A stretch of DNA of 63,319 bases, counting the filler, from Reclinomonas americana ATCC 50394 (Eukaryota), in the NCBI GenBank assembly GCA_048213135.1. It is 6 parts of 2 records of this genome, joined end to end, with 100 filler letters (N's around TTAATTAATTAA, not from the genome) between each part and the next. Parts side by side here need not be neighbours in the genome. Positions count along the whole stretch, not along the records: positions 10,265 to 22,095 come from PS015144.1; positions 22,196 to 32,556 come from PS015144.1; positions 32,657 to 44,994 come from PS015144.1; positions 45,095 to 59,345 come from PS015144.1; positions 59,446 to 63,319 come from PS015148.1; 1 more part is not named here. One strand, 5' to 3'. The notes under the pieces were generated by a model. It did no database searches and was not told the origin of the DNA. It worked only from the letters and a program-made list of their open reading frames with translations. The position numbers and the translations under genes are program-made. Numbering within the stretch: position 1 is the stretch's first letter; each line of letters starts with the position of its first letter. Shown here in pieces: positions 12,125 to 62,801 of the stretch.

Positions 12125-15068
12125 CGGCCACCATATCGAAGGATGGTCGTCGCCACTGTCGGCGCAGCCGAGCACGCCAATGGCCGCCGACCGCCATTTG
12201 CCGGAGGCGCTTTCCACCAATGAGGCTCTGTTGGATCAAGATGTTCAGGCACCGTACCCGAGGTCCATGTCGCTGGCCGAGATGCCAACTGGTGTCATGA
12301 TGGCGCCAGTAGCGGGCAAACCGAGTTCGCCAGTGGCAGGTGACGGCCCGTGTGCCGACGTGATCGTGAACTCGCCTTTGGCTCTCGAGCTGTCGCCGCC
12401 GCCGCAGAGTGAGGCGCTGATGGTGGTCATGACGCTCTTTTCACCGTCGGCGGCAGTGCCCAGCACACCACACGGTAGCCTGGTGGAGCATGACGCGGAA
12501 CCGCTGTTGGCACTGGCTGGATCGAGCATGTCGTCGCCACCGCACACTCCAGCGGCGGTGGATGTGCCCAAGTTCACCTCGCCGACGTCGGCGGTGCCAA
12601 GTACTCCTCTGGCCAACGAGCTGATCAGACGGCCGACGGTGCAGGCCATTGCCGTGGCGCCGTTCTTTGGAGACCCGTCGCTCGTCGACAATGAACGGCC
12701 GCCAGGCGACATGGACGTGGAGCGCCTGCTGCCGCTTGCCAATCCCAACGACACTGACGAGGTGGCTGGCACCGACGTGCAGATGTGCGAGCCGCCGGGC
12801 AGCTTGCGCCCGACCTCTGCACAGTCGACAATTCCGTGGGTGGATATTCGCGGAGATGAGGAGAAGGAGGAGGTGGGAGAAGATGAGAAGGAGGCGGAGA
12901 AGGAGGAGAAGGAGGAGGAGGAGGAGAAGCGGAAGCATCGTGCTCATGGCGGAGCTTTCGGAGTGTCTGGCGGTGGGATTGCCACAGGCCACGAACAGGT
13001 TGCTGCAGAAGCAGCCGACATGGTTGGCCGCAGCGCCGCCATTGCGGGCCAGGTGCCATCTGCAGTGGAAGCAACAGCAGCTTCTGGAGCTGGTGACGCT
13101 ACGGGTGCTGTGGACGCCGCCGTTGTGGAGGCGGCCCTGAGGTCCGGCGACGTGGAGGCCGATGGTGGCGTTGATGGAGCGGAGCCGCAGCAGGGAGATG
13201 AGGGTGGCGATGGTGATGGCGATGACAACGGCGAATCGCTCGAGTCGCCACTGGCCATGTCGCCGTGGTTGTCGGGCGAGAGCGATGCAGTACCGGCGAC
13301 TCCGCACGCCTTGGAGGCGGATGAGGACGTGGTGGACAGAACAGTAGGTGGCATGGATGGCGACGAGGCGGCCCCCGAGGCTGCCGATTACGAGATCCCC
13401 TCGCAGGATGCACTCGACAGGCAGAGTTCAGTGGCGCCTGCAGACGCTCCGTCGACCCCGTTACCGGCGTCGGCACGCGATGTGATGGCCGAAGCAGACG
13501 ACGGCGAGCTTATTGTGGCAGACCCGGCGCCTGAAGATCACGGCGCTCCATGTTGCGTGACACAGTTGGAAGAGAGGGGAGTCACGCAAATGTGTCGTTA
13601 CCATGTCTCATCCTCCTCCTCCTCTTTTGCAGCGGTCGCCATTCCAGCACTACAGATCGATCGAGTGCCAACCATAGCGTGCGTACCACGCAGAATAGCG
13701 CGATGCCTTTGTGTGCTTCTGCTAGACTCATGTGTGCACTCGCAGTAAACCCCCACCGCCTCCGCCGGTCTCGCTCAAGGAGCTGCTGCAGCCGCGCTCG
13801 ACCATTGACTCGGTAAATCTCCTGCGCCTGGACGAACACGGCGAGACGATGCTCACCGAGGCCGACGACGACATTTTGGTGGTGGCGACCAAGTTTATCA
13901 ACACGGTGTTCCACATGGGCCAGGCGACCCTGGAGCGCAACCGAAGTACGTCCAGATGTAGGAGAGACACTTACCTCTGTGCTTGTTCTCATGATTGGTG
14001 TCATCTCGTGCAGCACTGGACGACTTGTCGTCGTGGTTCATGTCGGTGTTTGATATCTCCATGGACTTTGTCAAGGTGATGGAGTCGCACGTGGTGGACT
14101 GTGACTTCTTCATGGAGCCGATGACACCGCGCACGTATGGTTTCGATTTCCTGAACGAGTACTTGAGAGTGCGTGCCCACGGGAGCCATCTTTTCACACG
14201 CATTCGCACACTCCCACTCTTCCATCGTGCTCACGATGTGTGTGCGTTTTTGTTTCAAACAGGATCTGCCGGCCATTGTGGAAGACATGTCGACTTTGCT
14301 GTCGACCGCTCTGGTGGCGGTGGCCGATCGGTACTCGCAGATCATGGACGCTCAGACGACCGAGAGTTGCGTGCAAAAGGCATGGGAGACACAATATGGA
14401 GACTGGCGTGTAACACTGTGCAATCGCGCAGAGTTGAGCGACAGCGAGTTTGATGCGCGAGTCGACGAGATGTTGAAGCGAACCATCATTCGCTACCTGT
14501 ACATCACCATCCGTCCGATGGCCATCGCATTCGTGAGCACCAACCACGACAACATCCTCAGCGGGCGTGTCTTTGGCAAGTGCCCCGGCGTCTACAGTTC
14601 GATGAATCTGCTGGCCACTGCACTTGCCGACGGCATCCACTGGGTATGTTCGGATCAGGGCGACGCCGATGTGTGGGATATTTTCGACATGGGCCCCGGT
14701 GGCTCCAAGCAGGGCATCAGCACGCCAAAGCCCGCCAGGCGGCAACCGTTCCACGTCAAGCTGCCGTACTTTTTGCACGCGTACATGATTAATGTTGCGT
14801 GATGGTGGCGGAGGAGAGCGAGACGTGGAGATTTCCGAGTTCTCACATGTTTCATTTGTACAGCTAATGTGGTTCTTCTGTTTGCTGGGCGAGGACGACG
14901 CCGAGAATCGAATGTGTATTCAAGACATCTTTGCCCCGACGCGCCGGCGCGGCTCACGCATGCATACGTCGGGTGGCAGTGGCCGCCACAGCACGTCTCC
15001 GTCGCCTTCGGCGTCGCAGCGGTCACCAGCGAGCTCCCATCTCGAGCCGGGCAGCCCGTGGGCGTGAG
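12125..15068 (+). CDS. 3' part of a large protein: acidic/P-rich disordered region, then an unassigned helical domain ending EPGSPWA*
   Basis: Long open exon 12125-13551, then in-frame spliced exons (donors at 13552, ~13679, ~13946, ~14169, 14794). Confidence 0.6.
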
Positions 15069-16147: not shown

Positions 16148-18870
16148 GGAGAGGCGTGAGCGGAAATAGAGCGCAGAAAAACGGTTGCTCTCTCTGTCTC
16201 TCTCGGTGCGTACCTGGAGGCACGTTGACGACCACGCGGGACAGCCGCCGGGCCGGCGGGACCATCGGTGGCAGTGGTACCTGGTGAACCGGCACTCGGC
16301 GGTGACATGGCGCCAGTTGGGGGTGACGATGGAAGGTTGGACGGCGGCGGCAGAGCACCCGAACGGTGCGGAGGAATTTCCGGTATGGCAATGCGCTTCT
16401 TGGCCTGATCACAACAAGCAACGCAAAGATGAGTTGGGTGAAATGGCGTGAGACGTGAGACGTGAGTGAGGAGGGCAATCCCCAACAAACCGGCTGTGCT
16501 GGGACACTCGGCTGTCGGGAGGGAATGGGGAGGAACGAAGAGTGCTTCAGATGAGCAACACACTGACATGCATGCAAAACAGGCATCATCAACAAGACTC
16601 CCACCTCGTTGCTGTCAGTGTCAGTGGAAGATGTCGGGGCATCGGCGGCGGCGGCGGGAGGAGTAGCAGGCGCTGACACGGGGAATGGATTCATGAGCTT
16701 CATGCATATCACACACATATGCCATCGCACACACCTTCCTCGACAGTGACATCCGAACTGAAGGCGACGCGAGGGCGAGCACGCTTCGGGGACTACGCAG
16801 GAAAACAATGATTAGTCATGCATCATCGGGCAGCCCACACACACTTGGATGGACACAAACCACAGCAGAGTTGGGCGAGCTGGCCAGATCGCCAGCGTGC
16901 ACACGGTGTGGTGAGCTGGCGGCTGGCGGTGGCGACTTGGCGGCGACTGGCACCGTGTCGTCCTCGGCACGAATGTTCTTGGCCTGCTGCAAAATCTCGT
17001 CCAGCTGCAATCCAGGATCAACTCCCTCGGGCAAATCCAGCAGCGAGCGCAGCGACATGCCAGACACCATGGAGGCCGAGCCGGAGCCCGACAGCGCATC
17101 GTCGTCGCCCTCGTACAGACGCATCATCATCTCGAACTCCTCCTGGTCTGACTTGATCTTCTGGCGCAACTCGTCCACCACACGGCGGTGCTCCAGCAGG
17201 CGGCCCTCCAGAGCAGAAGTCGACTCCGACTGCCCACGAGAGAGAGAGAGAGAACATGATGAGAACACTGCGTTGCAAAATCTCACAGTGCTTTCCGCGA
17301 TACGCACCTCCTTCAGCTGACGCTTCTCCATGTCAGTGCTGCTGTCGCCCAATGCAGCGGCCAACTTTTCCAGTGTGGCGCGCGCTTGGTCCGACACTGC
17401 ATGGTAGTGCTTGACCGTGTCGGCCTCCTCGTCCAGCGCGTGGTGCATGAACTCGCGATTGCGAGCATACTTTTCCTCCGTGGCCTCGCAATGGTGCACC
17501 GTGCTGTCCAGCTTTTGACGAATGGCCAGCAGCTGCAGTGACAGCAGCGTGAGCCATCCAAAGCAGAGATGCAGTACATGACTGATTGTACCGTTCGCTC
17601 AAAGCCCTTCTTCATGGTGAAGCGGTCGGCAATGTTCTTGGTGGCCAACTCCGACAGTTCGCGGTCGACAAACGCACGAACAGCGGCAACCTGTTCGCGG
17701 TTGCGATGCATGCAATCGACCGACGGTTGGAAGTCGTCGTACTGCTGACGTGTCTTGTTCTCCCACTGTAGAAACACGTGACGAGTGAGAAAAAAATGCA
17801 ATCTTGCTGGGAAGTGAAAGCACGACGTTCGCAACAGCTTCACGCTCGGCCTGCTGCACACGCTTCATCTCCGAGACGTCCACTTGTGCGGCACGCACGA
17901 GGTCAATGAGGCGCTGCGAAGACATGCGTTCCTCGTCGTGCACGAGCTTTTGCTCTTGAAGCGAATGCTGCAGAGGTGAAANNNNNNNNNNNNNNNNNNN
18001 NNNNNNNNNNNNNNNNNNNNNNNNNNNNNNNNNNNNNNNNNNNNNNNNNNNNNNNNNNNNNNNNNNNNNNNNNNNNNNNNNNNNNNNNNNNNNNNNNNNN
18101 NNNNNNNNNNNNNNNNNNNNNNNNNNNNNNNNNNNNNNNNNNNNNNNNNNNNNNNNNNNNNNNNNNNNNNNNNNNNNNNNNNNNNNNNNNNNNNNNNNNN
18201 NNNNNNNNNNNNNNNNNNNNNNNNNNNNNNNNNNNNNNNNNNNNNNNNNNNNNNNNNNNNNNNNNNNNNNNNNNNNNNNGATCGTTTCCCCATTCCGTCC
18301 ACCAACCTCAGTCGCTGCACCTTGAGCTGCAGCCTGATGCGCGCCAACCACGCGAAAAACACGTCGCGCTTCAGCACAATGTTGCGACGCTCCTGCAGTT
18401 GGGTTTGCGTGCGAGCGCGGTGCCAGTCGTTGGCCGCCGATGCCTTCTCATACGACTGCTGCATCCGCATCATGTGCGCGGCGCCGACAAATCGGCGCCA
18501 GTCGTCAAAGACGTACTTCATGCGGAGTTTGTCGGGAGTGTGCAACACAAACTGCGAGGAAGAGACATGAGGAGACACAGAGGAGGAAAAAAAAAAGACA
18601 ACTCGCACACAACGCAACAGCCAATTGCCTCTTCTGGCGCTTCGAGTGCTCCGAGTACAGAATCCACGCACGGAAGGCACGAGAGACCAACACGCGACGG
18701 TGCCACTGATAGGCCTTGGCGCGCAGCTGTCGCTGTGTCTGACAGTCTTCCGCAAAGTGGCGCCACTCCGAGAAAGCACGCGCAGTCCACGCCGCAATGC
18801 GGCGACCTTCAAACTTGGTGAGCTCGAACTTGCGCTGCTTCTCGAAAATGGCATTGTCGCGCAGAGCCTG
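16148..18870 (-). CDS. Sfi1/POC5-like centrin-binding repeat protein with coiled coil and S/P-rich tail (gapped; 5' exons probably near 19256-19570)
   Basis: Repeats IAAWTARAFSEWR, AYQWHRRVLVSRAFRAW, KLRMKYVFDDWRR and IVLKRDVFFAW fit the Sfi1 consensus A-x7-LL-x3-F-x2-W. Confidence 0.6.
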
Positions 18871-19730: not shown

Positions 19731-21808
19731 ATGGTCTTTTTCCGTTCTCTGTCTCTCTCTGTGTGTGATCTCTCATGTGCTGATCGTATGTCGTAGGGAA
19801 ACACGATTATGAACGGGCATGAGCTGGAGCAGTTGCGCAACTCATACTCACTGGCATCCTCCATCTGATCATGACAGCTTTTTTGATAGGACTCCGGCCA
19901 ATCGTTGGCGATTCTCAGTCGACACTGACTGTTGCGGTCTCGCTTTCTCTCATGTGTCTGATGATCTGTGAGAGTATGACGTTTATGTGTATGCAGCTGG
20001 CGTGGCCACTCGCGACGATGACTTGTACGACGAAGCGGAGATTGTCATTGGCACGAGGCGGTTCTTTTACCGGCACATGCGGACAGCTGATAAGCCACGG
20101 TTTGTGTATGACGCCTTTAGTGCTGTTCTCTGTGCTTACATAGCTGCATTTACAGCGCCGTGGTGTTCATCTTGCATCCGTTCTCCGTGGTGCGCGCGCA
20201 CGTGATGCAAATATTCCGATTTGGGTTTTCTTGTTGTAGTGACATGTGTGGTGTGCGCAGTCGTCGTTTGAGCAAGGCCAGACTGCGCGCTGGTTCCAGC
20301 AGCGAGGTATGTGCGCTGGTGATTGTCGATAGCCTCTCAGTGCGTGATTCTGACTCTCTTGTCAGGTTGCGAGGTGTGTTGTCATGCGGCTGCATGATTT
20401 CCGTCAGCACTCCTCACATGTCACGGCGTGCAGTGCTTCTCCTTGGACTCCATCGGACATGGGCGAACGGTTCGTCTCTTGCACAACGCTGGTGATGGTT
20501 GCCATGGCTCACTTGCACGTTGCAGGAGGGATGGGTGCAGATGATCCGCAACTGGCGCGAGCTGCGTGATGCGCACTGTGCGTTTGCAGAGGCACGGCTC
20601 GTTGAACGTTGCGTTGAGGAAAGGAAGAGGCCTGTCGCACTCCTCTGATCGTGTCTCTTGCGCGCAGACGCCGACCGCCTGAACGTGCCCGTGTTCGTCT
20701 ACGGGTTCGTGTTTCTCTCTCTCCCTCCCTCTTGCATTCGTACTGCCAGCTGACGTCTTTTTCTCAGCGCGTCCATGGGTGGTGCGCTCACGTTTCAAGT
20801 GAGCGCACACCTGGAGGCCATTGGTTGCGTGATGCTTCCTTATTTATGGTGCCTTGAGGCGTCCGAGCTGACTGTTGGTGCACAGGTACCTTTGCGTCTC
20901 GGGGCGGTGGTGCCATCATGGCATCGCCGGCCTTCCGGCTGCCTGGCGCCCCGCGCGGATGCGTCTTGTCGACTCTGCGGTGAGCAAATGGACGTGTGTG
21001 TTGTGCCTCCCTCGCTGTACGTGCGCCAACATTGACATCGTCGGTCAGTGCTGTGGCCGCCTGCTGTCCGTGCTGCGTGGTCACGCGCGAGAGCAACAAC
21101 AACCTGACACGCGATGCCGACAAGCTGGAACGCTTGCCCGACGTGTGGTACGCTCCGACCGCTGCTGCATGTGTACCGTAGAATGTGATTCTCACTCGTA
21201 CACGCAGGGGCTACAAGATCAGCGGCGGTGCGTCCCACCTCCACCCCCGTCGGAAATAATAATAACTCACTCAAATCACGCAGGCGTCAAGGCCAGCACG
21301 GGCGCCTCGCTGATGGACATGGGTGCCGACTGCGTGAGCCGCTTCCACGAGTACACCTCTCCCTTTTTGATCTTTCACGGCACCGGTACGACGGTATCTT
21401 CTTGCCTGCCGCGCAGTACATGAACTGAAGAACGCCGTGAATGACACAGGTGACCTGATGACGACCGCCACGGCATCGCAGGTGAGACAGGGCAAGGTTA
21501 TCACTTCGAGCCACTCTCGGGAGAAGCTCACAATCGCACGCTGCCGCAGGAAATGTACGAGCAGGCACGAACGCCCGCCGACGACAAACGCATCGTGCTG
21601 TTTGACGGCGCCTACCACGTGCTGTCCATTGAGCTGGACGAAGTCACCGATGTTGCGATGGCGGGCCAGTCGCAACAGGAAACGCCAACGACACACACTG
21701 ACCTTGCTTGCCACACAGGTGTACTGGCGAGAGATCGAGGAATTCATCGACAGACGAGTGGCAGCCGCACCGCCGCCCACCGCCGGAGGAGACAACGTAA
21801 TCGAGTAA
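19731..21808 (+). CDS. Alpha/beta hydrolase, monoacylglycerol lipase/lysophospholipase-like (Hydrolase_4); many short exons, start uncertain
   Basis: Spliced motifs CFSLDSIGHGRT, PVFVYGASMGG (nucleophile Ser), PFLIFHGTGDLMT (Asp) and FDGAYHVL (His). Confidence 0.85.
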
Positions 21809-21927: not shown

Positions 21928-22219
21928 TCAGTGCGACTCATCCATGCCAGCCGCAGCGCTCTGCTGACCGAGCTGCGCCACATGCTGAATCGTGTCCCAG
22001 TACCTGCAAATAGAACAGATCAACATTCGAGAAGCACACACAGACGACGCCAGCTCTCTCCTCTCCGTCTGAGTCTTACACATTGATCTGCTTCGNNNNN
22101 NNNNNNNNNNNNNNNNNNNNNNNNNNNNNNNNNNNNNNNTTAATTAATTAANNNNNNNNNNNNNNNNNNNNNNNNNNNNNNNNNNNNNNNNNNNNTCCTT
22201 CCTTCTCCCCGTCCTCCTC

Positions 22220-22262: not shown

Positions 22263-22711
22263 TGTGTGTGTGTGTGTGTCTCTCTCTCTCTCCATGCATT
22301 CCTCCTCGAGTCTGCATCTGCCTATTTCATGGCCTTTCCACATTCCCTTCTTCCTCCCCACTCTCTCTCTCTCTCCCTCTCTCCCTCTCACTCTCCCCCT
22401 ACACACTCACCGCTTCGTGCACGTCTGCAAGCACTCAGTCTCCGAGCTGCTCAATCGCGATCCCACCTTGCCCACGCACCGCTTCCAGCACGTCTTGGTG
22501 AACTGCAACTGCGCCATGTGATTCTGCTGCGCAACCTGCAACTGCATGCTCAGCTGCTGCAGCTCCTGCAAAAAGAGAGGAGGGCGAAATGTTCAGCAAA
22601 ACAAAACAAAACGCACACAAACAAACAACATGCACGTGTGTGTGTGAGAGAGAGTGTGTGCGTGCGTGTGTGCGCAACTCGCATGTCGCGTTCTGCTTGT
22701 GCGTTTGCCAT
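21928..22711 (-). CDS. TIM8: Mitochondrial small Tim chaperone, Tim8-like (exons 22711-22679, 22565-22411, 22003-21928)
   Basis: Twin CX3C: TCWKRCVGKVGSRLSSSETECLQTCTKR|YWDTIQHVAQL. The last intron spans the linker gap at 22096-22195 in matching phase. Confidence 0.85.
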
Positions 22712-22982: not shown

Positions 22983-23448
22983 GGAGGGAGGGAGAATACG
23001 CACAACTGTGACACATGAACGGCACCGATGAAGATGCACACACGCACTCTCTCTCTCTTCTCTCTCACACACACTATCGCACACATCAGTGATGCCTTCA
23101 TTCACTCTCACGTTTGTTGTTTTGTGCGTGTGTGTGCACGCGCGTAGGGACTTTGTGCAAAAGAACTACTCTGAGCTGCGGCTTCTCAATCCGGGAATGG
23201 GCCTGCGTGTGCGTGAGGCGGCTGGTGCTTCGCCGCAGGTGGTGGCCACGTTCAGTTGCGTTTGTGCATGAGAGAGAGGAGAGCTCTGCACACATGCGTC
23301 ATCTGGATGCAGTGATCGCCTCTCTGCCTCCTGATTCTGCTGTGCCTTTGTTGCAGAGTCGGGCGATGAGCGCGCCGTCAGCCTGGCGAACCTGTCGGAC
23401 GCTGAGGTCGGTGGTGTCATCAAGGGCTTTGCCGATGGCAAGGAATGA
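22764..23448 (+). CDS. NDUFA2: Complex I accessory subunit B8 (3 exons)
   Basis: MSWRGRLSQGLQELRFVACGEGASSKGVRDFVQKNYSELRLLNPGMGLRVREAAGASPQVVATFKSGDERAVSLANLS.. matches the CI-B8 family. Confidence 0.9.
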
Positions 23449-42400: not shown

Positions 42401-43073
42401 TCTCTCTCTCTCTCTCAGAGATACTCACCAGCACCGCAAATGACCTGCACACAGCCGACCAATCATTGAGCACAAGAAGAGAGACAGACAAACAGAGAGT
42501 GTGTGTGCAAGAGAGAGGAAAACACGCAACGTATTTGTACGCGCGCGGATGCTTGGAAGGCTTGCTCGACTCGGCATTCTCCGACGACGAAGTTGATGCG
42601 TTCTGCCAAGCAGCATCATTCAATCAGCAGCATCCGGACAAGTGGCATCATGACTGCATCCTCTTTAACAAACACAACAACACACAACGCACACTCTCTC
42701 TCACTCTCACAAACATACACACAGCACACACACAATGCGCGTGCAAAGCAGATTTCGTCACACAAAGAGAATCTCTCTCTCTCACACACACGCACACACA
42801 CAACACACTTGCGCACGCACGCTACACTACACGCACTCTGACACAGCGCGCAAGTGCGTGCACGCGCGCGTGTGTGCGTGTGTTTTATATGCGACATTTG
42901 CAACACAGACAAGACGCACTCTTACGCACACTCACCGACGCGTTCTGCTCTGTCTCTTCTTCTTCCTCTTCCTCAGCACGCAGCATGCTCATGGTGAGGC
43001 GACGCGAGAACTCAAAGGAGACTGCGGCCGCGCTGGCAAACGTGCGCGGCCACGACTTGACGAGCCACCACAT
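39443..43073 (-). CDS. AIFM1: Apoptosis-inducing factor-like FAD/NADH oxidoreductase (start uncertain; 314-N gap in an intron)
   Basis: [78 protein letters not shown]. Confidence 0.9.
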
Positions 43074-47413: not shown

Positions 47414-49724
47414 ATGGCATTACCGTTTGCACTGGTGCTCTTCCTCGAGGGCGCCTCATCAGTGCTGGTGAGTGTGTGTGCATGTCTCCTTTCCATAATG
47501 CACTGATCACTTGCTCATTCTCCGACACAGTTGACTGTGATGCTTGCGCTTGCTGGTCAGCAGTCGTTTTTGTGTCACTCTGTGCTCTCATTGTTAACTC
47601 TCACTACTCATGCACAGGCATGTATCTCGTGTGGCGTCGGTTGGTGCCCGATAATCTGCCCAGCATCCTCTCAAAGCTCACTGTTGAAGGCATGCATGTA
47701 TGCATTCATTGTTGTTCTCTTCGTGCGTCGTCCACTCATTCCTCTTGTGTAGTCACGTTGCCGTGCTTTGCTTTTGTAAAGGTTTGCATGGATTGTGTGC
47801 TCTTCTTCGTCGTTGTTGTTTCATGAACATGCATGCAGCTCGGTGCCAGTATCAATCTCGACGAACTGCTGCGATTATGGGCCGTCTTTATCGCGCCACT
47901 GGTCGTGTGGGGTGAGGCAGCAGCAACACCGCTACTGTTTTGCTTCTCGTTGGATCGCCTTTCATCTCATGCCACTGCACAGGTGTCACGTATGTGCTGG
48001 TGGCGCTCATCTTTCGCGTGTTCTGCCGCGTGCCCGATCGTGGACTGCAGAGCATTCTCATGTGCAGTGTGCTGATGACCAACAATGGTGTGGCGACTGT
48101 GCTCGCCAACAGTCGTTCCAGTCGTTTTCTGTTTCTGATGTCGAGTGTTTCTCCACGCAGGCAATGTGCCGTTCGCCATGGTCGAGGTGATTGTCACCTC
48201 GGAGGTGTTCACCAGCGTCTTTGATCCCAGCCTGAATCTGCGTGATGTGGCCGCCGGATACATCTCGTGCGTTGCCTGTTGGCCACACGTGCACTCTGCG
48301 GTAGTTGTCTCACTTCTGTGTGCATGGCAGTGTTTATGTCATTCTCGGCGCTGTGGTCTGTGTGCGTGCCGTCTCTGTGTACCTCCCTCACTCGCCTCAC
48401 GCGCTGCGTCAGATGTACTGGACCATTGGTCTGAAGATGTTCAACAGCGGGGCCCCTCCGTCGAGTGCGCCTCCCAACTCCTCCACTCTGCAAATGTCGC
48501 CGTCGATGCGGTACATTCGCGACAACGTGATGCCGACCATTAAGCTCATTTTCAACGCACCCAACATTGGCCTCCTGACGGGCATTGTAGCGTTACGTCA
48601 CTCCACCATCACGCAGTCGGAGATTGGGAGTTGACATTGAGATACAACAGGGGATGTATTGCGCCCGTTCGACAATTTTTGTTTGTCAAGCCGCCGTACA
48701 TCATCTCGGGCATCATGGGCGGTGTTCGGCTGGTGAGTCCGTGTCTTCTCTTGCCTCAAACGACTTGGTCTCACGCGCGAGAGAACCAGTTGAGCGATGC
48801 GATGATTGCGGTCGCCACGGTCAGCACAGGCGCAGGTACATACTTGCCTCCACGCCCCTTCCGCCTCCGTTACTCATCACTACCCCCCTTTCAGCGCTGG
48901 CCCTCACTCTCCGACGGCAGGCCGAAGAGCGACGACACAAGCGAACGCAGGTTTGAATGCTCACATGGGCAGCGCTTCCGTATCGCCTCTTGCTGATTTG
49001 CTTCTGTGAGCAGTCCTTTGTCAGCCAGTTGCCAGAGGTGGACGAAGTGGAGTTGACAGAGGTGGACTCGGAGCGGCCACAGCACGATGGCGAGGACCAG
49101 CATCACTACAGCGAGGACGACAAGAAGGATCTGCTTGCTCGCAGCCAGTCGGGGGCGAGTGTTGCCGCTCCGTCAACCGCCGCGGCACCAGCAGTTCTCC
49201 TCCTGTCGACTCGCGACATTTTCTGGAGCGTATTCGCCAAGCAGGTGCTCGTGCCCCTCGTCTTTGCACCGCTGGTGTATGGTACGTACTGTCGATCGGC
49301 AGCTGCTCCCTGTGTCGTACCTCGCTCACTCACTCAGTGGAGCAGGGGTGTGGTGGCTCGGGGTGCTGCCGAGCGATCGGCTGCTGGTCTTCACGCTCAT
49401 GCTGCAGGGAGCGGTGCCGAGTGCTGTTGCGTCTCGTTTGCAACAATTATTCCTGCACACGTGCTGTTCTTCATTCATTCACTGACTGACGTGTTGAGCG
49501 CAGGTCGTGCTGACCATCATGGCCGAGTTTGCTGGCTTTGGTCGCGCCGAAGTCTCGGTGCTCATGCTGTGGCAGTACGCATCCACAGTTGTGTGTCCCT
49601 CCATGCGCATCTCATCTGCTGTAGAGAGATTGTCGACCTCACACTTCCTCCCTCCGTGCAGGTGATCCTGCTGCCGATCTGGTCTGCTGTGTTCCTCGCT
49701 ATTGTGTCCACCATTCCGGCATGA
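47414..49724 (+). CDS. PILS-like/auxin efflux carrier (AEC, Mem_trans) family transporter, multi-exon
   Basis: LSKLTVE|VTLPCFAFVK|LG, NN|GNVPF, FNAPNIG, DRLLVFTLMLQGAVPSA, EVSVLMLWQY; multiple hydrophobic segments. Confidence 0.85.
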
Positions 49725-49795: not shown

Positions 49796-51712
49796 TTATG
49801 GCTGCTTTCGTGCGCGGCGGGCCTGAAAAAAGCAGCAGCAGAGTAGAGTGCGTGCTGACAAAGTGAGCACGCAGTGCCACGAGCGCGATCACAATGTAGA
49901 TGCGGAACCTCTTTTGCAGCGGCCGCTTCCTCCTTCAGGAACTCACGTCGCGTGTTCGACCGTGGCCCGGCATTGAAAACGCGACCGAACGACGGAAGCC
50001 ACATGGGGTCGTCTTCGCCGCTGGTCGGTACACCCGCTGCGCGTGCGCGCTCCTTGTTCACACCACAAAATGCATCCACACACGAGAGCAGACAGCTGCA
50101 CGCAACTGGCCTCCGCGAGCCTCTTGGCGCGCAGAAAATCGGCGCCGACGCGATTCGGCGGCAGCCTGGCTTGCCGCTCGGCCTGTTTCGCTGACGGTAC
50201 GCGCGAGCCGAGACGCACACCACGAGGGGGCATGGTCGGTCCAATGACGGGTTGCTACACGAAGAACAAAAAAACAAAAGTGACACACGGGTTTAGGAAC
50301 GAGTTCGTCGACCACATTGCGTGTGGTAGGCAGGGTACGGTGGAAGAACGAAAGCAACAATCAAAAGGATACATCACGCGGCGTGGACGCACAATGGCGG
50401 AGGCCGGACGAAGCCACGGAGGTACTGAATCAGCGTCGTACACATTCTTCTCGCCGGAACCCAACTGGCGCGGACGCAGAGCAAACAGGCCTGGCCCTGA
50501 AGCACGCTGCGTGACCTTGCGCACGACTCCATCTGTTGCGGCACGAAGGGGTCAGGTGTATGCGACGTTGGTGGCACTGAAACGCCACGCAACTCGCAGA
50601 GACACGAGGAGTGTATCGCTGGAAAATGCGCGTGCCCATGATCTCGGCCCCGCGAAAGTCATCCGACTGGTCGTCCAGGTCCAGCTCCCACGGGATCCAC
50701 TGCGATTGCGTGGCACCGTGATACCTGACCACTCCTCCGCCCCACACACGCCGCCCCTCGTGCCAGCCAGTGGGGTTCTGCATCACGCCGTGCTCGTTGG
50801 TCACCGTATAGTACACTGCGTCGCAATGAGCATGCCGCGGTGGGAAGAGATGAGGCAAGTACTGACCTATGGGAGCACGTCTGATGATCGGAGGAATGGC
50901 AATCGTGGTGGCCGTCGTCGTCGTCGCAGTGGTGGTGCTGGTCGTCGTTGTCTCCCTGCTGTCCATCTCCTCGCGCTGTTTCTCCTCGCGCTGCTTCTCC
51001 TCGTACTCCTCCACGGCCAGCAAGTACTGCAACGTCGGTGGGTGAGTCCCTGCCTCCCGCCTCCCACCAAAAACACACGGACCTCCACCCACTCGTCATC
51101 GTTCAAGTACTGCGCCTGTGCCCGATGCGAGCGTGGCTTGTTCTCCTTCCAGAACGCATGCACCGAGGCCACATGCACCGCCGACGCCAAATGCTCCACA
51201 AAAGCAAAGCCAGGCACACGCTCCTGCTGCGTCGACTTCTTCTCGTTCTTCTTGACCTTCTTCATCTTCTTTTCCCCTTCCTCGTCCTCATCCTCGTCTT
51301 CCTCTTCCTCGTGATCATCCAGTGCAGAGGCGTGCCGAAACACATCGCGTGCACAAAACACGCAGTAGAATCGCTCACGAGCGCCATCGCCAGTCACCAC
51401 TGGACCCTCTGCATGCCACATCATCAATCTCCGCCACTCTCTCACACACACAGCGGCACTTTGGCGTCACTTGCCTGCACTGCGGAGAGCCTCGGTGCCC
51501 CACATGCGCAGAAAGTGCTGCGTGCGAGCCTCGTGCTTGCCGAGTACACGCTCGACGGCGGCAACATGTGATGGAGTGAAGGCATGACCACGCTCGGCAA
51601 AGCTCAGGCGACACACACTGCAGTAGACCAGTGCACCGCCGCCACTGCCACCACCAACACCACGTTTTCGCACTCGTTTGCGTCGTTTCTTGGTGGCCTC
51701 GCCCTCGCTCAT
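49796..51712 (-). CDS. CCDC84: CCDC84/CENATAC zinc-finger protein (last exon tentative)
   Basis: CSVCRLSFAERGHAFTPSH, FYCVFC..EHLASAVH..FWKENK, RLPPNRVGADF, WLPSFGRVFNAGPRSNTRREF. Confidence 0.88.
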
Positions 51713-51776: not shown

Positions 51777-52416
51777 TTATGAGTGCTGATCATCATCGTC
51801 GTCTTCCCTGGCAGTGAGGCGACTGGCTGGGGGTTCCACCACATGCACTGCGCCGTGTTTCTTCCGCCTGCAGCGAGTGAAGGAGAAGATGGTGAGACGC
51901 GCCAGCACGGTGAGGGATCACAAAAAGAAGCCGGGCGCAACATGAATGGTCTGCCGAGCTCATCGACCACGTCCACGTGCTGCGCCAGCAGAGTGTGCAG
52001 ATGACCGGGCGAGTGTTCGTGTCTCCGCCGTGTGCATCGGCACACCTTGGAGAACGCCCACTGCGACACGACTCGGACGACCTCGATCAGGTCCTTCAAG
52101 CCTGCGGTCGAAAACCAATGATCAGCCTCCGCCGCAACCATCATTCGCAAGCCCACCGACACCACGTACCAATCACGAGCAACAGCAGCAGCACGAGCAC
52201 CTCGCCCACTGTCAAGTGGTGACCCACATTGATGCGGCGGAGCAGTGTGCTCTTGGTCAGGTCGATGCGCAGTTGCAGGTCGCCTCGCGACGGCACCGTG
52301 TTGCGATCGTAGAATGCGTCGGCGTGCATCAACCGCGTTGAGCTGGTAGTCACCGACCACATGCGATATGAGCGGGAGAGCACTATGGCACAGCAGTGGT
52401 GAGTGCAAAGGACCGC

Positions 52417-52507: not shown

Positions 52508-55500
52508 GAGAGGACGACGACGACGTACGACGAGACGACGTACGACGTACGTACGACGTACGTACGTACGTAACGTACGGTACGTACGTACGTACGNNNN
52601 NNNNNNNNNNNNNNNNNNNNNNNNNNNNNNNNNNNNNNNNNNNNNNNNNNNNNNNNNNNNNNNNNNNNNNNNNNNNNNNNNNNNNNNNNNNNNNNNNNNN
52701 NNNNNNNNNNNNNNNNNNNNNNNNNNNNNNNNNNNNNNNNNNNNNNNNNNNNNNNNNNNNNNNNNNNNNNNNNNNNNNNNNNNNNNNNNNNNNNNNNNNN
52801 NNNNNNNNNNNNNNNNNNNNNNNNNNNNNNNNNNNNNNNNNNNNNNNNNNNNNNNNNNNNNNNNNNNNNNNNNNNNNNNNNNNNNNNNNNNNNNNNNNNN
52901 NNNNNNNNNNNNNNNNNNNNNNNNNNNNNNNNNNNNNNNNNNNNNNNNNNNNNNNNNNNNNNNNNNNNNNNNNNNNNNNNNNNNNNNNNNNNNNNNNNNN
53001 NNNNNNNNNNNNNNNNNNNNNNNNNNNNNNNNNNNNNNNNNNNNNNNNNNNNNNNNNNNNNNNNNNNNNNNNNNNNNNNNNNNNNNNNNNNNNNNNNNNN
53101 NNNNNNNNNNNNNNNNNNNNNNNNNNNNNNNNNNNNNNNNNNNNNNNNNNNNNNNNNNNNNNNNNNNNNNNNNNNNNNNNNNNNNNNNNNNNNNNNNGAG
53201 AGAGAGAGAGAGGGGCGATGGAGACGTACTTGCACGGCACACCAACTTGTCGAGTCGAACAATGCTGCTGAGGAAACCGGAGTTGCTGACCGCAGTGCAC
53301 TGCTCGACAATGCTCGGCAGGAGCAGCATACTCACTGCCAGCTCACCGCGCAGCAGCTTGCCGGGTGGCGGCTCAAACACGCCACGCGTCCAACTACTCA
53401 ACCAGTCAGTGTCACACTTGCCCGAAAGAGTGGGTGGCACCGGCATACCTTTCCACGCCATTCTTCTCGCTCTCCACCGCCGTCACGTTCAGCACCAAGC
53501 GCTGCACGTAGAGCGGCACGAGAGAGTCCTGACTGTGCATGTCCATGACAAAGGAGCTGGCGGTGGCCAGAGCGTAGCCCTCCGAGAACGTCGTCAGCAC
53601 ATCACACGTGAAAGGACCTTCGCCTTCCACGGTTCGAATTACTGTGACGACGCACGTGAGTGAATTCGGTTGCCACCAAGAGCAAGCATTGCGGCGCAAC
53701 TCTGTTCGGGTCGACAGTCGTCGGCCGATTGCACGCCCTCTCTACACCCCGTCGTCTGCAACTGCACTGTGATGGACGAGCAGGGAACATTCACGCCCTC
53801 CAGACGCAGTCGGATTTGCCACGGCAAACTCTCCACGTCGTGCACGACCTCGCGAGGCTCCTGCGAGGAGGAGGATAGTCAGCGTGGCCGTCACAACCAA
53901 GAGCAAGACATCGCCTTAATGGTGCGACTCACAAACTCAGACACGGTGGCCAGCGAGGCCGACACCGAGTCGTTGGCACCGCTCAGCATGAACGCCAGCA
54001 TGAAAATGGCCAAGAAGAGCACGGAAATGTAAAACAGCAGGCTGGCCAGCGAGCCGCACACCGAGCTCCACTTGTACTTGCGGCGATTGGCAAACTCGGG
54101 CGTCTCGCCAATCTCGTCGTGCTCCGACTCCTGCACACCAACAATAATGGGTGAGAACACAAAACATGCTTCGCAACAGGTAGGCGACCGTGCACACCTC
54201 GGACATGATGTTCATGGCCAGCAGAACGCTTTGCGTGCCCAGTTGCACGTTGCGCAGCGTGCCGTCACGCCAGCGGAACGCAAACACACTGCAAAACAAT
54301 CGAGTGAGAGAGAGTTTTCAACAAACGACAGGCAAAGGCATGGTCGACGAAACGTAATCGTAAACATGGCCAACCCCATCAGTGCAAACGAGAGCACGGG
54401 CAGGAAGCTGAGGAAGAAACTGTCTTCCACATTGACCTCTTCGGTAGGCTCCAACGGCTCCTCCGCATACTCAAAGCCCTCCTCCTCGATATCCAACGGC
54501 TGCGCGCTGCCGGCAGGGCACGAATGCGAGTTGGGTGTGCACGCCAGGCACGAGTCGGTGTATGACGAGCCCGTCGCCGGGTTGTAGGTGCCTTCGGGAC
54601 ACAGCTGGCACGCATCGAATCCACTGGTCGGTTTGAATGTGCCCTGTCCACATGGCACACACGAGTTCGCCAGCAACTGCTGTCCCTTGGGGCACGCCTC
54701 TGCACATTCTGCGTGAGTCTTCCTCCCCTTCGTGCCCCCACGACGAGCAAAACGCAACGGAAAAACTTGACATCGTACAGCGACAGCGTAGCGTCCTGCG
54801 AGGTGACGAGGAATGTGTCGGAGAGGCCGCTGGTGGAGGCGCGCACATTGTACGGTGACTGGAAGTAGGCCGGATAGTTCTGGCTGGGCGCCGAAGCATC
54901 AAGCTCCACCCATCGCCGCGCCTCGTCTCGCGAGAACAGCCGCAGTTGCGCAGACTTGCCCTGCTGTACCGAGCCCGTAGAGCTGACCAGCAACGTATCG
55001 TATGGTTCCGAGTAGGACAGCTGCGAGCCGAAATTCACGAGTCCGTGGTCGCGCGACGTGAAATTCTGCACCAAAGTACCGGCCGGATTCTGCTCAATGG
55101 TGTAGGCCAGCACAGAGTTTTGCGTGGCGAACCCCACAGCAATGTCGGAGGTGCCAACCAGTTCCACCGACGTGGCGCAGGCGGTGGCGTTGGTGCGAAT
55201 CTGCGCGGCCACCGAGAGCGACCCATCGGCGGCCACATCCAGCACCATGACCTCGGAGACCACGATGAAGCTGCGATACGAGGCCTGCTTCGGCGCGCAA
55301 TACGTGCACTGCGCATAGGCCGTGCGACTGCCACGCGCCGTCAACGCCGTGATGACGGTCTGGCCCTGGCAGAAGCGCGGCGGCACACTCTGCAGTCGCG
55401 CCTGCAAACGAGCCTGCGAGCGCGCCGTCGCTGCTGCCACTGTCGTGGTCGTGCCGAGAGTGGTCGAAGTGGACGAAGTTGTCTGTGTCGAGTTGGTGAC

Positions 55501-57178
55501 GGCGACGAGTGCCTGCACGTAACAGTCAGTGACGTACAATTAAAGGGGAATCCGTGCGCATGTACCTCTGCGGCGACAGCGGGCTGCTTCACATGTGCGG
55601 TGGCGGCCGGCGCCTTGAATAGAGGCTTCTTGAGCTGGTCGGCGCGCGACTCGTGGCACCGCAACTGAGGGCGTGCACAAAAAAGGGGCGCGTGAGGGGG
55701 CAATGACGATCGGCGACAGGTGCGGTGAAACGACGCAACTCCCGACGAGGTCACCGAGCACACACACAACGGCCATTGATTCGTGTCGTACACTTGCCGC
55801 ACGTCGCCAGCACACGAGCTGACCGCAAACGAATCGCCAAGTTTGACGTGCAATCCCAGTGTGCAGTTGGCGGCCGCCAATCCACAGTCCGCCTCCTGTC
55901 ATTGTCAGCCAGCGTTTAGCATCATTGCTCCAAGAAGGACACCAACGAAGCGCCTCGCAACTGTGAACGAATACGAGGCCGAGCACGCCTTTTCCGCGTC
56001 GTGGTTCATGGCCGCTCGTGGTTCGGCACTCACCAACTCGGCAAAGTCCTCCGTCATGGCATTGTAAAAGTCATCGTCGTCTTCGTCATCGTCTGTCGCA
56101 TCGGCGCCGCTGGCGTGCGTGCTGGCGGATGACGACGACACGGTCAGCGGCGACGCCGAGGTTACCGACACGGCAGTGGCACACAGGCTGGTGTCGATCA
56201 GCTGCAAAAGGCCAAGTGAGAACACAAGGAGCATGGATGTTTGATGCCTCGCACGTACCTCGACGTAGCCGTAGGCACCGGCGCTGCCCGTGAGTCCATG
56301 CTGCGAACCGACGGCCGCAAGTGCCAGTGGCGCCGAGCCACCCACCGGCGTCACCTTGTGCACGTGCACCGACACGCCATACGTGGGATCGCCGGGCTTG
56401 CGCAACACCGTGCGCCACTTCCACACATCGGGCGTGCCAGCCACACCCGCCACCCGCCGCACCGTGGTCGGCGTCGTCTCCGTTTCCACCGCCGCCTCCA
56501 CCGCGGTGGACACTGCCGGAGTCGACACCGGCATGGCCACAGTTCTCAATTCCTCATCCACTCGCTGCTTGCCACTCGTCGGCGGCGGTGGTGGTGACGA
56601 CGACGATGGCTGCTGTTGCTGCTGTTGCATGACTGGCATGTCCAGCATATCAGCATCGGCCACAGCCGGCGACTGCACCGCCAGCACTGGACTTGGCGCA
56701 GAAGCCGCCGCAGACGACGCAGCAGCCGTTGTACGACTATGCTGATGATCGCCACTCATCTCACCCACGCGATCCGCCTGCTCCTCCTCCTCAAACGACA
56801 CCTGCAACAGCACCGCCGGCGACAACTCATTCTCCGTCGCCCCTCGTCGCTGCTGCTGCTGATCATCACTATCCGAGTCACGCGACGACAAGGGCGGGGC
56901 GGTGGGTGGAGGCGCCACCACACGCTGATAGAGAATCACTTGCCCGCCGAGTCGCAGCTGATTGTTGACCGATTCAGCCGCCGTCACACCAATCACTGCG
57001 AATTCGTCGCCCACACTCGCCGCCACGTGTTCCCCTGTGCAACTAGTTGCTGAGACAAAGGGCGAGTGTGACTATGAGTGTGTGTTGATCACTCACCACT
57101 CACGCACACAATCATCGACAAGAACAGCAGCAAAAGAAGCCATGTTGGCGCGCAAACGTGACTTCTTGTCTCTCTCAT
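51777..57178 (-). CDS. Large secretory-pathway membrane protein: signal peptide, FG-GAP-like propeller repeats, Cys-rich (ephrin-receptor-like/GCC) repeats, several TM helices
   Basis: Signal WLLLLLFLSMIVCVS; FAVIG..GQVILYQ, YGVSV..AAVGS..GYVE, NFGSQLS..LLVSS; CVPCGQGTFK..CQLCPEGTYN..CLAC..CPAGS; hydrophobic helices near 54400, 54020 and 52190. Contains a 602-N gap. Confidence 0.65.
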
Positions 57179-59345: not shown

Positions 59346-59898
59346 NNNNNNNNNNNNNNNNNNNNNNNNNNNNNNNNNNNNNNNNNNNNTTAATTAATTA
59401 ANNNNNNNNNNNNNNNNNNNNNNNNNNNNNNNNNNNNNNNNNNNNACACTACACATAGTACTATAGTAGTAGTAGATATACTAAGTAGTAGAGAGAGAGG
59501 AGGAGGAGAGAAGAAGAAGAAGAAGAAGAAGAAGAAGAAGAAGAAGAAGAAGAAGAAGAAGAAGAAGAAGAACAAGAACAAGAAGAACAGCGACAACAAG
59601 AAATAACAACAACAACAAGAAGAAGACAGAGAGGAGGAGGAGGAGAAGAGGAAGAACAAGAAGAAGTAGAAGAGGAAGAAGAAGAAGAACAAGAAGAAGA
59701 AGAAGAAGAAGAAGAAGAAGAAGGAGAACAAGAACAAGGAGAAGAACAAGAAGAAGAAGAACAAGAAGATGAAGAAGAACAAGAACAACTAGAAGAAGAC
59801 AGAGAGGAGGAGAACAAGAACAAGAAGAAGCCAAGAAGAAAGAGGAGGAGGAGGAAGAGCAGAAGAAGACTGATAACAATTCATTGTGTGCGCGCAAC

Positions 59899-59946: not shown

Positions 59947-59999
59947 GGGTGCCACAGAGGGACCGCCACTCATTCTCACTGACAAAGAGCGACGACGGA

Positions 60000-62801
60000 A
60001 TGAGTGAACCTTTGATCAATCAACTCTTGACATATATAAAGATGTTTGTGGAGAAAGGCGAGGTTACCAGTGTGCGTCCGCGCTTTGTGAGCAGTGTGAG
60101 TGGCGATGTGAGTAGTAGTGTGGTTGCTGGTGCGGCGGCGCCTTCGCCGGATCGACGGGCGGATGAGCGGCAGCCGGAGGAGTGCAGACCACTCTGTTGC
60201 GTCTATGTGTGTGTGACATGTGCCACAGACACGCACGCACGCACGCATTCACGGAGAGAGCACGCACACAGAGAGCACAGAGAGAGAGAGAGAGAGCACA
60301 CTGACTGCATTCATGCAATCAATCACTCTCATTGCATTCGCTGCATTCGCTCACTCGCCTGTCTCCCTTGCGCTTGCCTGCTTCATTCGCTGCAGTCTCT
60401 CATTCACTCACCCTGCCTGCCTTCTTCCCTGCCTTCCCACTCACTCTCACTGCATTCGCTGCATGCTCACATATGGTCATTCGAGCTGACTGCGTCCCCT
60501 GCATTCGCTGCATTCACTCACTTGCCAGTCTCTCTCGCTCTTGCCTGCTTCGTTCTGTGCCTCTTGCACACACTCACTCACTGCTTGCCTCCTTCCCTGC
60601 CTTCACGTCTCTCGTGCGCTCACCGCATATGCTCACACATGGTCATTCGAGCTGACTGCATCCCCTATTCGCTGCATTCACTCACTTGCCAGTCTCCCTT
60701 TCTCTTTGCCTGCTTCGTTCGCTGCAGTCTCTCATTCACTCACCCTACCTTCCCTCTTCCCTGCCTTCCCACTCACTCTTACTGCATTCGCTGCAGCTGC
60801 TCACACATGGTCATTCGAGCTCACTGCATCCCCTATTCGCTGCATTCACTCACTTGCCAGTCTCCCTTTCTCTTTGCCTGCTTCGTTCGCTGCAGTCTCT
60901 CATTCACTCACCCTACCTTCCCTCTTCCCTGCCTTCCCACTCGCTCTTACTGCATTCGCTGCAGCTGCTCACACATGGTCATTCGAGCTGTCTGCATCCC
61001 CTGCGTTCGCTGCATTCACTCACTTGCCAGTCTCCCTCTCTCTTGCCTTGCCTCTTGCGCACGCTTACTCACCACCTGGCTCCTTCCCTGCCTTCCCATC
61101 TCTCGTGCGCTCACTGCAGCCGCTCACTGATTGTCATTCGAGCTCACTGCATTCATGCACACTCACATTGCATTCACTCAGTCGCCAGTCTCCCTCGCTC
61201 TTGCCTGCTTCGTTCTTGCCTGCCTCTTTGCGCGCCTCCTTGCTCACTCGTTCCGTATGCTCATGCTCAGTCCTGAAGCTCGGCGTGGTGGAGAAGAGTC
61301 GCGGCTCGGCCTACATTGAGCTGCACAACACCAAAGTCATGTGCTCAGTGTTGCGTCTCTCAGTTTGCGCTGCGTGTCTCTCTGCTCGTGTTCTCCAGGC
61401 TGCTCATCTTATTATTGCGCTGCCAGTGTCGGTCCTCGCCCGACTGCACGCCCCGAGTTCACCGAGCAAGGCCAGTTGCATTGCAGTGTGCATGTGGCTC
61501 CCTTTGCCACCCCTGTGCGTCTCGTGCCCAACTCTGTTGCGTCCCCTCGGTTGTGCGGTGTAGAAGAGGGGAGATGCCCTGCTGACGCTTTGTGCAGTAC
61601 GAGTCGCGTGAGTTGGATCGGCAGCTGTCGCTGCAGCTGTATCAGGCGCTGGAGGCGTGTGTGTGGCTCGATCGCTTCCCGAAGGCCGTCGTCGATGTCA
61701 ATGTGGTGGTCATGGAGTCGGATGGAGGTTCGTGGGGGACGGCGAAGGGAGTAGAAGGAGGGAAGGCAAAGAACGAGAGAGCAGCAGCAGCAACGACAGC
61801 ATGAGAGAGAGAGGGGGGGAGGGAGAGTCCCTTGTGTTCATTAGTGTGCGTGTGGAAGGAGAGAGGGAGAGAGACAGACAGAGAGTGAGAGAGAGAGAGA
61901 CCCGTGTGTACATTTGTGCGCTTACGGAGAGAGAGAGAGAGAGAGCAAAATCGACGAGAGCGAGAACGAGAGGAGAAGTGCAGAGAGTGAGATGCAGAGA
62001 AAGAACAGAGACTGGAACAACGCAGGCCAGAAGACCACAAATTTAAGCTGCATGAAAACATCGGAGATTGAGTCCACAAAGAGAGAAAGAGATGAACGCA
62101 GAGGAAGAGGCCAACAGCAAGAACTTTAGTGCACCATCTGAGCGAGAAGCGGAAAGTGAGAACTGAGAGAGAGTAGCTCCTTGAAGGACGACTACGACTC
62201 GATATTGCTGCACGACGACAGCTGTGATTCATAGAGTGCAAGACAGTGAGTACAGCAAGGCAACGGAAAGTGAGCCTTCTTCTCCTCTCTCTCTCTCTCT
62301 TTACTTCTCTCCTCTCTTCTCCTTTCGCTGACCGACCGCGTCACAGGCACTCTGAGTGCCATTATCAACTGCGCATCACTGGCGCTGGCCGACGGCGGCT
62401 TTGAGATGTACGACCTTGTCGCGGCGTGTCAAGCAGTTTCGCAGCCTTGTTTTTTTTACTCCCCCTCTCCTTCGCACATGCTCACTCCCCCCCTCGCGCA
62501 GTGTGAACTGCAACGCAGCATTGTGCTCGACCCCACTGCCGTGGAGGAGCGCTACCAGACCGGCAGTATGTGTGTGGCCTACATGCCGTCGCTGAGCGAG
62601 GTCACACTGATGACACAATCGGGCGAGATGAGCGTCACCAAGGTGATGGAGGCCATTGATCTGGCACTCGACGGCTGCTCTCGAATCCACGAATTGCTAC
62701 GCTCGCATCTGCTGGCGTCGCTGGTGGAGCAGGAGGAGAGAAGAAAGCGGGAAGAGGAAGAGGACGATAGAGCAATGATGGCGGTGGATGGAGCAAAGTG
62801 A
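60000..62801 (+). CDS. EXOSC6: RNA exosome RNase PH-like subunit, Mtr3/EXOSC6 (RRP41-like)
   Basis: CRPL|FLKLGVVEKSRGSAYIE..KVMCSV|VGPR, APFA, LDRFPKAVVDV..ESDG|G..INCASLALADGG, VLDPT..EE. Confidence 0.85.
60300..61235. repeat. ~168-bp minisatellite, about 5.5 copies, inside EXOSC6 intron 1 (60196-61270)
   Basis: atggtcattcgagct recurs at 60473, 60639, 60807 and 60975, with a variant at ~61131. The central copies are nearly identical. Confidence 0.9.

Follow-up and report, generated by a model that had tools for sequence, protein, structure and literature searches.

A second class of 5' splice sites, GTTNCG after a non-G exon base, among predicted introns of Reclinomonas americana

The window analysed here, a 63,319-base stretch of Reclinomonas americana ATCC 50394 DNA (GenBank assembly GCA_048213135.1) that includes 4,781 N in 24 runs and has a G+C content of 57% excluding N, is nuclear DNA, densely set with introns whose median length is about 67 nucleotides (nt). 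Among its genes are those for an AIF-like protein, an RNase_PH (exosome subunit-like) protein, a Ras-like GTPase, a protein kinase, a complex I B8 (NDUFA2)-like protein, two Methyltransf_16 proteins and a low-complexity repeat protein. A preliminary description of this DNA had listed 23 hand-inferred introns that begin with GTTGCG, each after a base other than G, and had proposed that U1 small nuclear RNA (snRNA) pairs with these donors one base further into the intron than usual, or that a variant U1 or U6 snRNA or specificity factor is at work. GTTGCG stands at the base and on the strand given for all 23 sites, and A, C or T precedes every one of them. In the following, class A denotes GTNNGT donors and class B GTTNCG donors, -1 is the last exon base and +1 the first intron base, a slash marks the exon-intron junction, and a site is named by its first intron base and strand.

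Introns were predicted by dynamic programming on both strands with a donor-blind finder, which needs just GT at the donor, uses no donor matrix, and scores codon log-odds, an acceptor matrix, the branch motif CT[CG]A[CT] and intron length (longest intron allowed, 400 nt); codon usage was trained with an entropy filter against CT-rich repeats. GTTGCG already led the donor hexamers (n = 13) among the 110 introns of the first pass, and four retraining rounds, likewise donor-blind, led to 138 introns with GTTGCG (n = 23), GTGCGT (n = 11), GTACGT (n = 7) and GTGAGT (n = 7). Chance choice among the 7,562 GT sites would yield 1.39 GTTGCG donors, and the same pipeline applied to the reversed window returned 45 'introns' with a top hexamer count of 3. 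A model of independent positions, made from the predicted donors, expects 1.8–2.0 GTTGCG donors; the 23 seen far exceed this, so the preliminary description's own reservation, that the motif might be no more frequent than such a model predicts, does not hold at the scale of the window. Of the 23 hand-inferred sites, 14 came back in the donor-blind run, which added nine GTTGCG donors; combined with a learned donor mixture, the finder recovered 17 of the 23 and gave the final set of 139 introns. Site 41750- was absent from both runs, yet is settled by homology (see below). Thirty-two of the 139 predicted introns have class B donors, a larger class than had been claimed, and 61 have ordinary GTNNGT donors. 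By subtype, the class B donors are GTTGCGT (n = 19), GTTGCGC (n = 5), GTTGCGA (n = 3), GTTTCGT (n = 3), GTTACGT (n = 1) and GTTGCGG (n = 1), so that two of the related motifs proposed earlier recur among predicted donors, while the third, GTTCCG, is found at none of the 139. Open frames were joined by the finder across the 32 class B introns. Together with the six hand-inferred sites that were not predicted they make up a wider list of 38 candidates, all of which start with GT and end with AG.

Word counts agree with these predictions. GTTGCG occurs 76 times on both strands of the window against 47–54 expected from Markov models of order 1–3, and GTTGCGT 31 times against 11–12; the excess of about 20 GTTGCGT over the Markov expectation agrees with the 19 predicted donors that carry this heptamer. 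Within predicted exons, GTTGCG lies 8 times on the sense and 19 times on the antisense strand. The density of GTTGCGT is 0.53 per kb in the window, six times the 0.087 per kb seen in unrelated eukaryotic metagenome contigs (392 kb). These contigs came from a scan with a kinase exon (80 loci) whose best identity of 65% indicates that no close relative is among them, and they were used solely for motif density. We conclude that class B is very probably a real donor class, used by roughly a quarter to a third of introns. Five class B donors, at 13552, 14794 and 20824 on the plus strand and 44232 and 45599 on the minus strand, read GTTGCGTGA and so carry a TGA seven bases into the intron.

Clustering of donors, as had been suggested in the preliminary description, separated two types. 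Expectation-maximisation from random starts on 137 donor-blind donors (one of the 138 could not be windowed) favoured two components plus background by the Bayesian information criterion (4410.6, against 4515.9 for one and 4508.4 for three). The first component (about 49%) reads ..G/GTGcGT with G at -1 in 81%, the second (about 33%) ..C[t/a]/GTTGCGT with G at -1 in 3%. The dependence between the -1 base and the +5G or +6G register that had been predicted is strong in the donor-blind set, where the -1 base played no role in prediction: 32 of the 41 class A donors follow a G, against a single one of the 27 in class B (Fisher p = 3.7e-10). The final set gives 51/61 and 1/32. The -1 base of the 38 candidates is T in 14, A in 12, C in 11 and G in one, 20824+ (attg/GTTGCGTGA); the earlier statement that G never stands there is thus true of the 23 original sites and has a single exception in the wider list. 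Class A, G/GT[G/A/T][C/A/T]GT, and class B, H/GTT[G/T/A]CG(T), are co-dominant 5' splice-site types, and class B is closely tied to a last exon base other than G.

Two class B junctions are fixed by homology, both in the AIF-like gene, which lies on the minus strand and contains four of the 23 sites. A full HMMER search with one AIF exon gave 150 homologs, and the first 40 of length 480–760 were aligned. At 41750-, the read-through open reading frame matches human AIF (chain 1m6i_A) in two segments, one ending with ..LPYMR (residue 52) and the next starting with PPLSKELW.. (residue 53). The 25 extra residues, equal to the 75 nt of the candidate intron, fall exactly between these abutting segments, and LPYMR/PPLSK is gap-free at the junction against 40 homologs. 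At 39886-, the spliced protein is gap-free against 37 of 38 homologs and the GTTGCG donor belongs to the sole frame-keeping GT-AG pair within 15 nt. Homologs gapped opposite a window residue, counted over 17-residue stretches, number 8/40 at 41750- and 1/38 at 39886-. The C-terminal junction at 39533-, followed by eight codons, is weakly supported; splicing there brings an L into a conserved column. In the RNase_PH gene, exon 61273–61347 matches profile positions 8–31 up to its last residue and exon 61598–61801 matches positions 73–111 from its residue 6, and the 36-residue exon between them fills the profile gap within one position, which fits the introns at 61350+ and 61536+. The reading joined across 60196+ resembles by eye the start of an RNase PH protein, and the exon that follows this candidate intron is the one with the match to profile positions 8–31. 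Searches of Pfam and PDB with single short exons mostly gave no match (e.g. both exons at 44232-, 49426+ and 21652+; also exons 39710–39820 and 23359–23445) and are uninformative either way.

Apart from the donor, introns of the two classes are alike. Either class has a median length of 67 nt (p = 0.43) and a G+C content of 0.535; the acceptor is CAG in 55/61 class A and 30/32 class B introns. Of the 32 class B introns, 29 have a CT[CG]A[CT]-type branch motif, whose median distance to the 3' end is 18 nt (18–19 nt in both classes); the rate of 29/32 is partly built in because the finder scored the same motif. The shared length, base composition, branch site and acceptor speak for removal of both classes by the same major spliceosome, and against a U12-like system or a recent introner family. 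U12-type introns have the donor /RTATCCTT and the branch site TCCTTAAC. They resemble class B in being a second donor class beside a main one, but the branch site, branch distance and acceptor of class B are those of the main class; a U12 identity was rejected since the donor and branch logos of class B differ, and [AG]TATCCT occurs 4 times in the window, counting both strands. The branch sites themselves are CTCAC, CTCAT, CTGAC and CTGAT, with CTAAC and CTAAT found once each among class A and class B introns. The latter two are common elsewhere.

A natural series of paralogous introns is provided by a 25-exon gene (23573–28893, minus strand), whose low-complexity, acidic and serine-rich protein is built of modules N[DEA]LVAGDDSD.. 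and ..KPEVAADESDLSDEEPARPA.. that are bounded by introns at matching positions. Each N[DEA]LVAGDDSD module is preceded by a phase-0 intron, with the donors CCG/GTGTGTG, CCG/GTTAGTG, CCT/GTTTCGT and GAC/GTTGCGT. Class changes here along with a synonymous change of the last exon base (CCG/GTGTGTG and CCG/GTTAGTG versus CCT/GTTTCGT); at paralogous positions, therefore, class follows the last exon base.

On the intron side, the one-base alignment drawn in the preliminary description is borne out: class B at +3 to +7 reads like class A at +2 to +6, with T at +3 for T at +2, G/T/A at +4 for G/T/A at +3, C/T at +5 for C/T/A at +4, G at +6 for G at +5 and T at +7 for T at +6. Class B +4 has a log-likelihood of -22.6 if modelled as shifted class A and of -41.1 if modelled as background. 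For class B -1, the distribution at class A -2 is a better fit than background by about 6 nats; class A -2 is also G-poor (G in 5/61), parallel to the avoidance of G at class B -1. We assign a probability of about 0.5 to the explanation that the recognition helix of class B is displaced by one base. A class B donor would then be a class A donor moved one base further into the intron, with its +1G at the place of the exonic -1G, a U in place of the class A +1G, and the core UGCGU following. The 5' splice-site helix, formed with U1 first and probably with U6 later, would lie one base downstream of its usual place, either in a shifted register or with a bulged U at +2/+3, the two being equivalent on the intron side, and the cut would still be made at the only GU.

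Pairing was predicted by nearest-neighbour folding of each donor with the canonical U1 5' end (AUACUUACCUG, from an excerpt of PMC4856993). Class A donors have a mean of -6.9 kcal/mol and take the canonical register in 59 of 61 cases. Several observations weigh against a displaced helix, or against the class that it is meant to explain. For class B donors the mean is -1.1 kcal/mol and no register is preferred; their +1G pairs with C9 in 4/32, with C8 in 3 and with nothing in 15. On the intron side, a bulged U at +2/+3 does as well as a shift; for class B -2 and -3, compared with class A -3 and -4, the shifted model is no better than background; and GTTGAGT, the shifted form of GTGAGT, has just two copies in the window, neither of them at a predicted donor. 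All introns are predictions from genomic DNA and homology, in gene models that contain errors of our own (one intron of more than 400 nt was mis-modelled), and the sample is one 63-kb window that may not represent the genome. Among the 139 predicted donors 46 are unclassified, many of them probably false, seven of the hand-inferred sites remain candidate or doubtful, and 2 of the 38 class B junctions are fixed by homology.

The shifted-U1 proposal of the preliminary description hence stands as to the two classes, the dependence between -1 base and register and the one-base displacement, but not as to standard U1: given the poor pairing predicted for class B in any register, simple shifted pairing to standard U1 does not suffice. 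Because canonical U1 is predicted to pair so poorly with GUUGCGU, R. americana probably has a U1 with a noncanonical 5' end, or else affinity is added by proteins. A U1 core complementary to GCG would go well with the G at +3 and the C at +4 that are frequent in class A. It is possible, though on balance somewhat doubtful, that register is uncoupled from the cut site genome-wide, with one snRNA set, its U1 probably adapted to GCG, that reads HG[G/U]UGCGU in one way and the cut placed before whichever GU is present. If so, the choice between two cut sites that lie one base apart would depend, in about a third of introns, on one base (G or U as the third base of the motif, preceded by G or by non-G).

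A bulge at +2/+3 with unchanged exon pairing is disfavoured on the exon side, as it keeps -1 opposite C9 of U1 and predicts that G is favoured there, which is nearly excluded in class B (1/27 in the donor-blind set, 1/38 in the wider list). The same near-absence of G bears on the strongest of the rival explanations, in which a dedicated variant U1 or other snRNA pairs with GUUGCGU in the normal register, so that two U1 species would coexist. The very poor pairing predicted for class B with the canonical U1 end and the sharp, ungraded separation of the donor classes speak for such a variant; a normal-register U1 that keeps C9 would favour G at -1, however, and the change of class by single bases at paralogous introns suggests one flexible reader. 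We consider a second U1 rather unlikely. Recognition mainly without U1 pairing, through a U1C- or LUC7-type protein or through U6 and U5 contacts, appears slightly less probable still. In that case the likeness to a shifted class A would reflect U6 pairing with G at +6 and U at +7, in keeping with the weak predicted U1 pairing and with a conserved class B part that is the CGU/GCGU core, as in class A, but by itself this leaves the avoidance of G at -1 unexplained.

The remaining rivals would dispense with special recognition or with the donors themselves. Introner elements, as in Micromonas and Aureococcus, produce many introns with one terminal motif. Relics of such a burst, with insertions that carried GTTGCGT and preferred a non-G target, would account for the uniform heptamer and the biased flanking base, and in the terminal motif class B is like them. 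It has, however, no common internal sequence or distinct length class: an all-against-all blastn-short comparison of the 139 introns gave 8 pairs with E < 1e-3, all of low complexity and none class-specific, there is no inverted terminal motif at the 3' ends, the introns equal those of class A in length, G+C, branch site and acceptor, and either class can stand at a paralogous intron position. An introner origin was rejected since the only likeness along class B introns is CT-rich low complexity, and we hold it to be very improbable. Slightly less credit still is due to the reading that most of the sites are unspliced and reflect hand inference or the finder at work in GC-rich DNA with long chance open frames. 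Several sites do remain candidates only, but the reversed-window control without an enriched hexamer, the match between the GTTGCGT excess and the predicted donors and the two junctions fixed by homology have largely refuted it already. GC-AG donors otherwise match the donor consensus closely, and GTT/GCGT is unlike that. Misplaced junctions, with GTT exonic and a GC-AG intron starting at GCGT three bases downstream, are the least credible rival, for although a frame-keeping GC..AG exists at +3 in 8/8 sites examined, this reading was rejected at both testable junctions, where it adds one residue against 40/40 (41750-) and 38/38 homologs (39886-) and the GT reading is gap-free.

Human shifted sites have an AAGU core. 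That of class B is GCGU, and canonical U1 is for this reason predicted not to hold class B; class B also has a strict non-G at -1, with its one exception in 38. In other respects the human shifted-register sites (Roca and Krainer 2009, via an excerpt of PMC4856993) and class B are alike: both match the consensus when displaced by one base, the +1G replaces the -1G, the U at +2 faces C8 of U1, and the cut is at the GU. The human +2/+3 bulge registers described in the same excerpt offer a second parallel, as GU-U-GCGU can be read as GUGCGU with a bulged U and the intron-side statistics fit equally. Validated noncanonical registers of all kinds make up 1.5% of 201,541 human 5' splice sites (PMC4856993, in excerpt), compared with 32 of 139 predicted introns for class B. 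A search of the splicing literature for GTTGCG-type donors, covering only the text of a library of open-access papers and excluding figures, supplements and subscription journals, found none.

Table. Class B introns and candidates in the window. Lower-case letters are the last exon bases. Listed, site of the preliminary description; DB, donor-blind finder; DM, donor mixture.
Location	Strand	Junction	Type	Gene or context	Origin	Basis and remarks
7612..7892	+	ctc/GTTACGTG	candidate, relative motif		new	DB
9435..9518	+	gcc/GTTGCGTG	intron		new	DB
10023..10117	+	taa/GTTTCGTC	intron, relative motif		new	DB
13552..13632	+	cat/GTTGCGTG	intron		listed	DB; stop on read-through
14366..14431	+	aga/GTTGCGTG	intron		new	DM only
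14794..14863	+	aat/GTTGCGTG	intron		listed	DB
17766..17835	-	gct/GTTGCGAA	intron		listed	DB; length not a multiple of 3
18552..18618	-	gct/GTTGCGTT	intron		listed	DB
19832..19889	+	gca/GTTGCGCA	intron		new	DB; uncertain (unconserved N-terminus)
19931..19996	+	act/GTTGCGGT	intron		new	DB; uncertain (unconserved N-terminus)
20608..20667	+	aac/GTTGCGTT	candidate		listed	not predicted
20824..20885	+	ttg/GTTGCGTG	intron, sole one after G		new	DB
21652..21718	+	gat/GTTGCGAT	intron		listed	DB
22566..22678	-	cga/GTTGCGCA	candidate		listed	not predicted
23255..23356	+	tca/GTTGCGTT	intron	complex I B8 (NDUFA2)-like gene	listed	DB
27070..27146	-	gac/GTTGCGTT	intron	before module NDLVAGDDSD	listed	DM; paralogous introns
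27793..27858	-	cct/GTTTCGTC	intron	before module NALVAGDESD	new	DB; paralogous introns
30007..30113	-	agc/GTTGCGTG	intron	Ras-like GTPase gene	listed	DM; downstream exon matches Ras family profile
32152..32274	+	aca/GTTGCGTG	candidate		listed	not predicted; acceptor picked by rule
38839..38900	+	aca/GTTGCGCA	intron	protein kinase gene end	listed	DB; upstream exon ends Pkinase profile
39469..39533	-	agc/GTTGCGTG	intron, weak	AIF-like gene, last intron	listed	DB
39822..39886	-	cgt/GTTGCGTA	intron	AIF-like gene	listed	fixed by homology
41676..41750	-	tgc/GTTGCGTT	intron	AIF-like gene	listed	fixed by homology
42445..42530	-	tac/GTTGCGTG	candidate	tiny exon, then assembly gap	listed	not predicted
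44166..44232	-	gtc/GTTGCGTG	intron	Methyltransf_16 gene	listed	DB; an upstream exon matches Methyltransf_16
45542..45599	-	cct/GTTGCGTG	intron	second Methyltransf_16 gene	new	DB; upstream exon matches Methyltransf_16
49426..49503	+	gct/GTTGCGTC	intron		listed	DB
50533..50593	-	cga/GTTGCGTG	intron		new	DM only
51868..51941	-	cat/GTTGCGCC	intron		listed	DB
53642..53700	-	aga/GTTGCGCC	intron		new	DM only
54289..54353	-	tac/GTTTCGTC	intron		new	DB
54700..54758	-	tcc/GTTGCGTT	intron		listed	DB
55665..55739	-	gga/GTTGCGTC	intron		new	DB
55896..55961	-	aca/GTTGCGAG	intron		new	DB
59789..59898	-	gca/GTTGCGCG	intron, doubtful	downstream 'exon' CT-rich, low complexity	listed	predicted
60196..61270	+	tct/GTTGCGTC	candidate, 1075 nt	RNase_PH gene	listed	longer than the finder's 400 nt
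61350..61426	+	agt/GTTGCGTC	intron	RNase_PH gene	listed	DM; RNase_PH exon spacing
61536..61597	+	tct/GTTGCGTC	intron	RNase_PH gene	new	DB; RNase_PH exon spacing

Some of the listed sites call for comment. At 20608+, the finder took an in-frame GTGCGT donor (cact/GTGCGTTTG) at 20578, 30 nt upstream, with the same acceptor. The candidate at 22678- joins MANAQAERDMR to a twin-CX3C exon, and a downstream ATG could start this protein without the intron. The exon upstream of 23255+ matches residues 31–62 of 98 in NDUFA2 chains, and the downstream exon has no match. Sites 32152+ and 42530- adjoin tiny exons or gaps. The candidate intron at 60196+ joins ..EECRPL to FLKLGVVEKSRGSAY and consists largely of tandem repeats with a period of, by eye, roughly 170 nt.

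The AIF-like gene has further unusual features. A 7-nt micro-exon, TGTGGAG, lies at 40080–40086 (minus strand) between introns that start at 40151 (GTACGT) and 40079 (GTTTGC), and its splice product RRRVEHHDH aligns to homologs without gaps. A 434-nt intron with a long CT/GA repeat spans 40613–41046 (minus strand), with the donor cacg/GTGTGTGTG at 41046; homologs give the join ..VMAR/NFPRYLS, where the finder had put two false introns and a false exon. The exon at 41174–41428 (minus strand) reached a best identity of 55% among 1.84 billion representative proteins. A word-index protein search with the AIF exon and a kinesin exon (cut-off 1e-10 for kinesin) gave no matches, and a metagenome scan with the AIF exon found no relative. 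The lineage seems poorly represented in protein collections.

Other features of the window are of technical interest. Five identical linker blocks of the form N44-TTAATTAATTAA-N44, with stops in six frames, lie at 10165–10264, 22096–22195, 32557–32656, 44995–45094 and 59346–59445 and are the cause of a large excess of TAATTA-type hexamers. Likewise, (TACG)n microsatellites at 52548–52596 and 63268–63290 account for the excess of TACGTA and GTACGTA. A search of the whole window for RNA genes with Rfam at gathering thresholds gave none, including no snRNA gene.

What is a rare exception in human, a shifted or bulged U1 register, would here be routine, in a quarter to a third of introns. If this is true, R. 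americana would be a natural system for studying how the choice of the cut site can be independent of U1 pairing, and how U1, U6 and the donor consensus co-evolve. Gene finders with one donor matrix would miss or misplace class B introns, and annotations of this organism and its relatives may therefore be systematically wrong.

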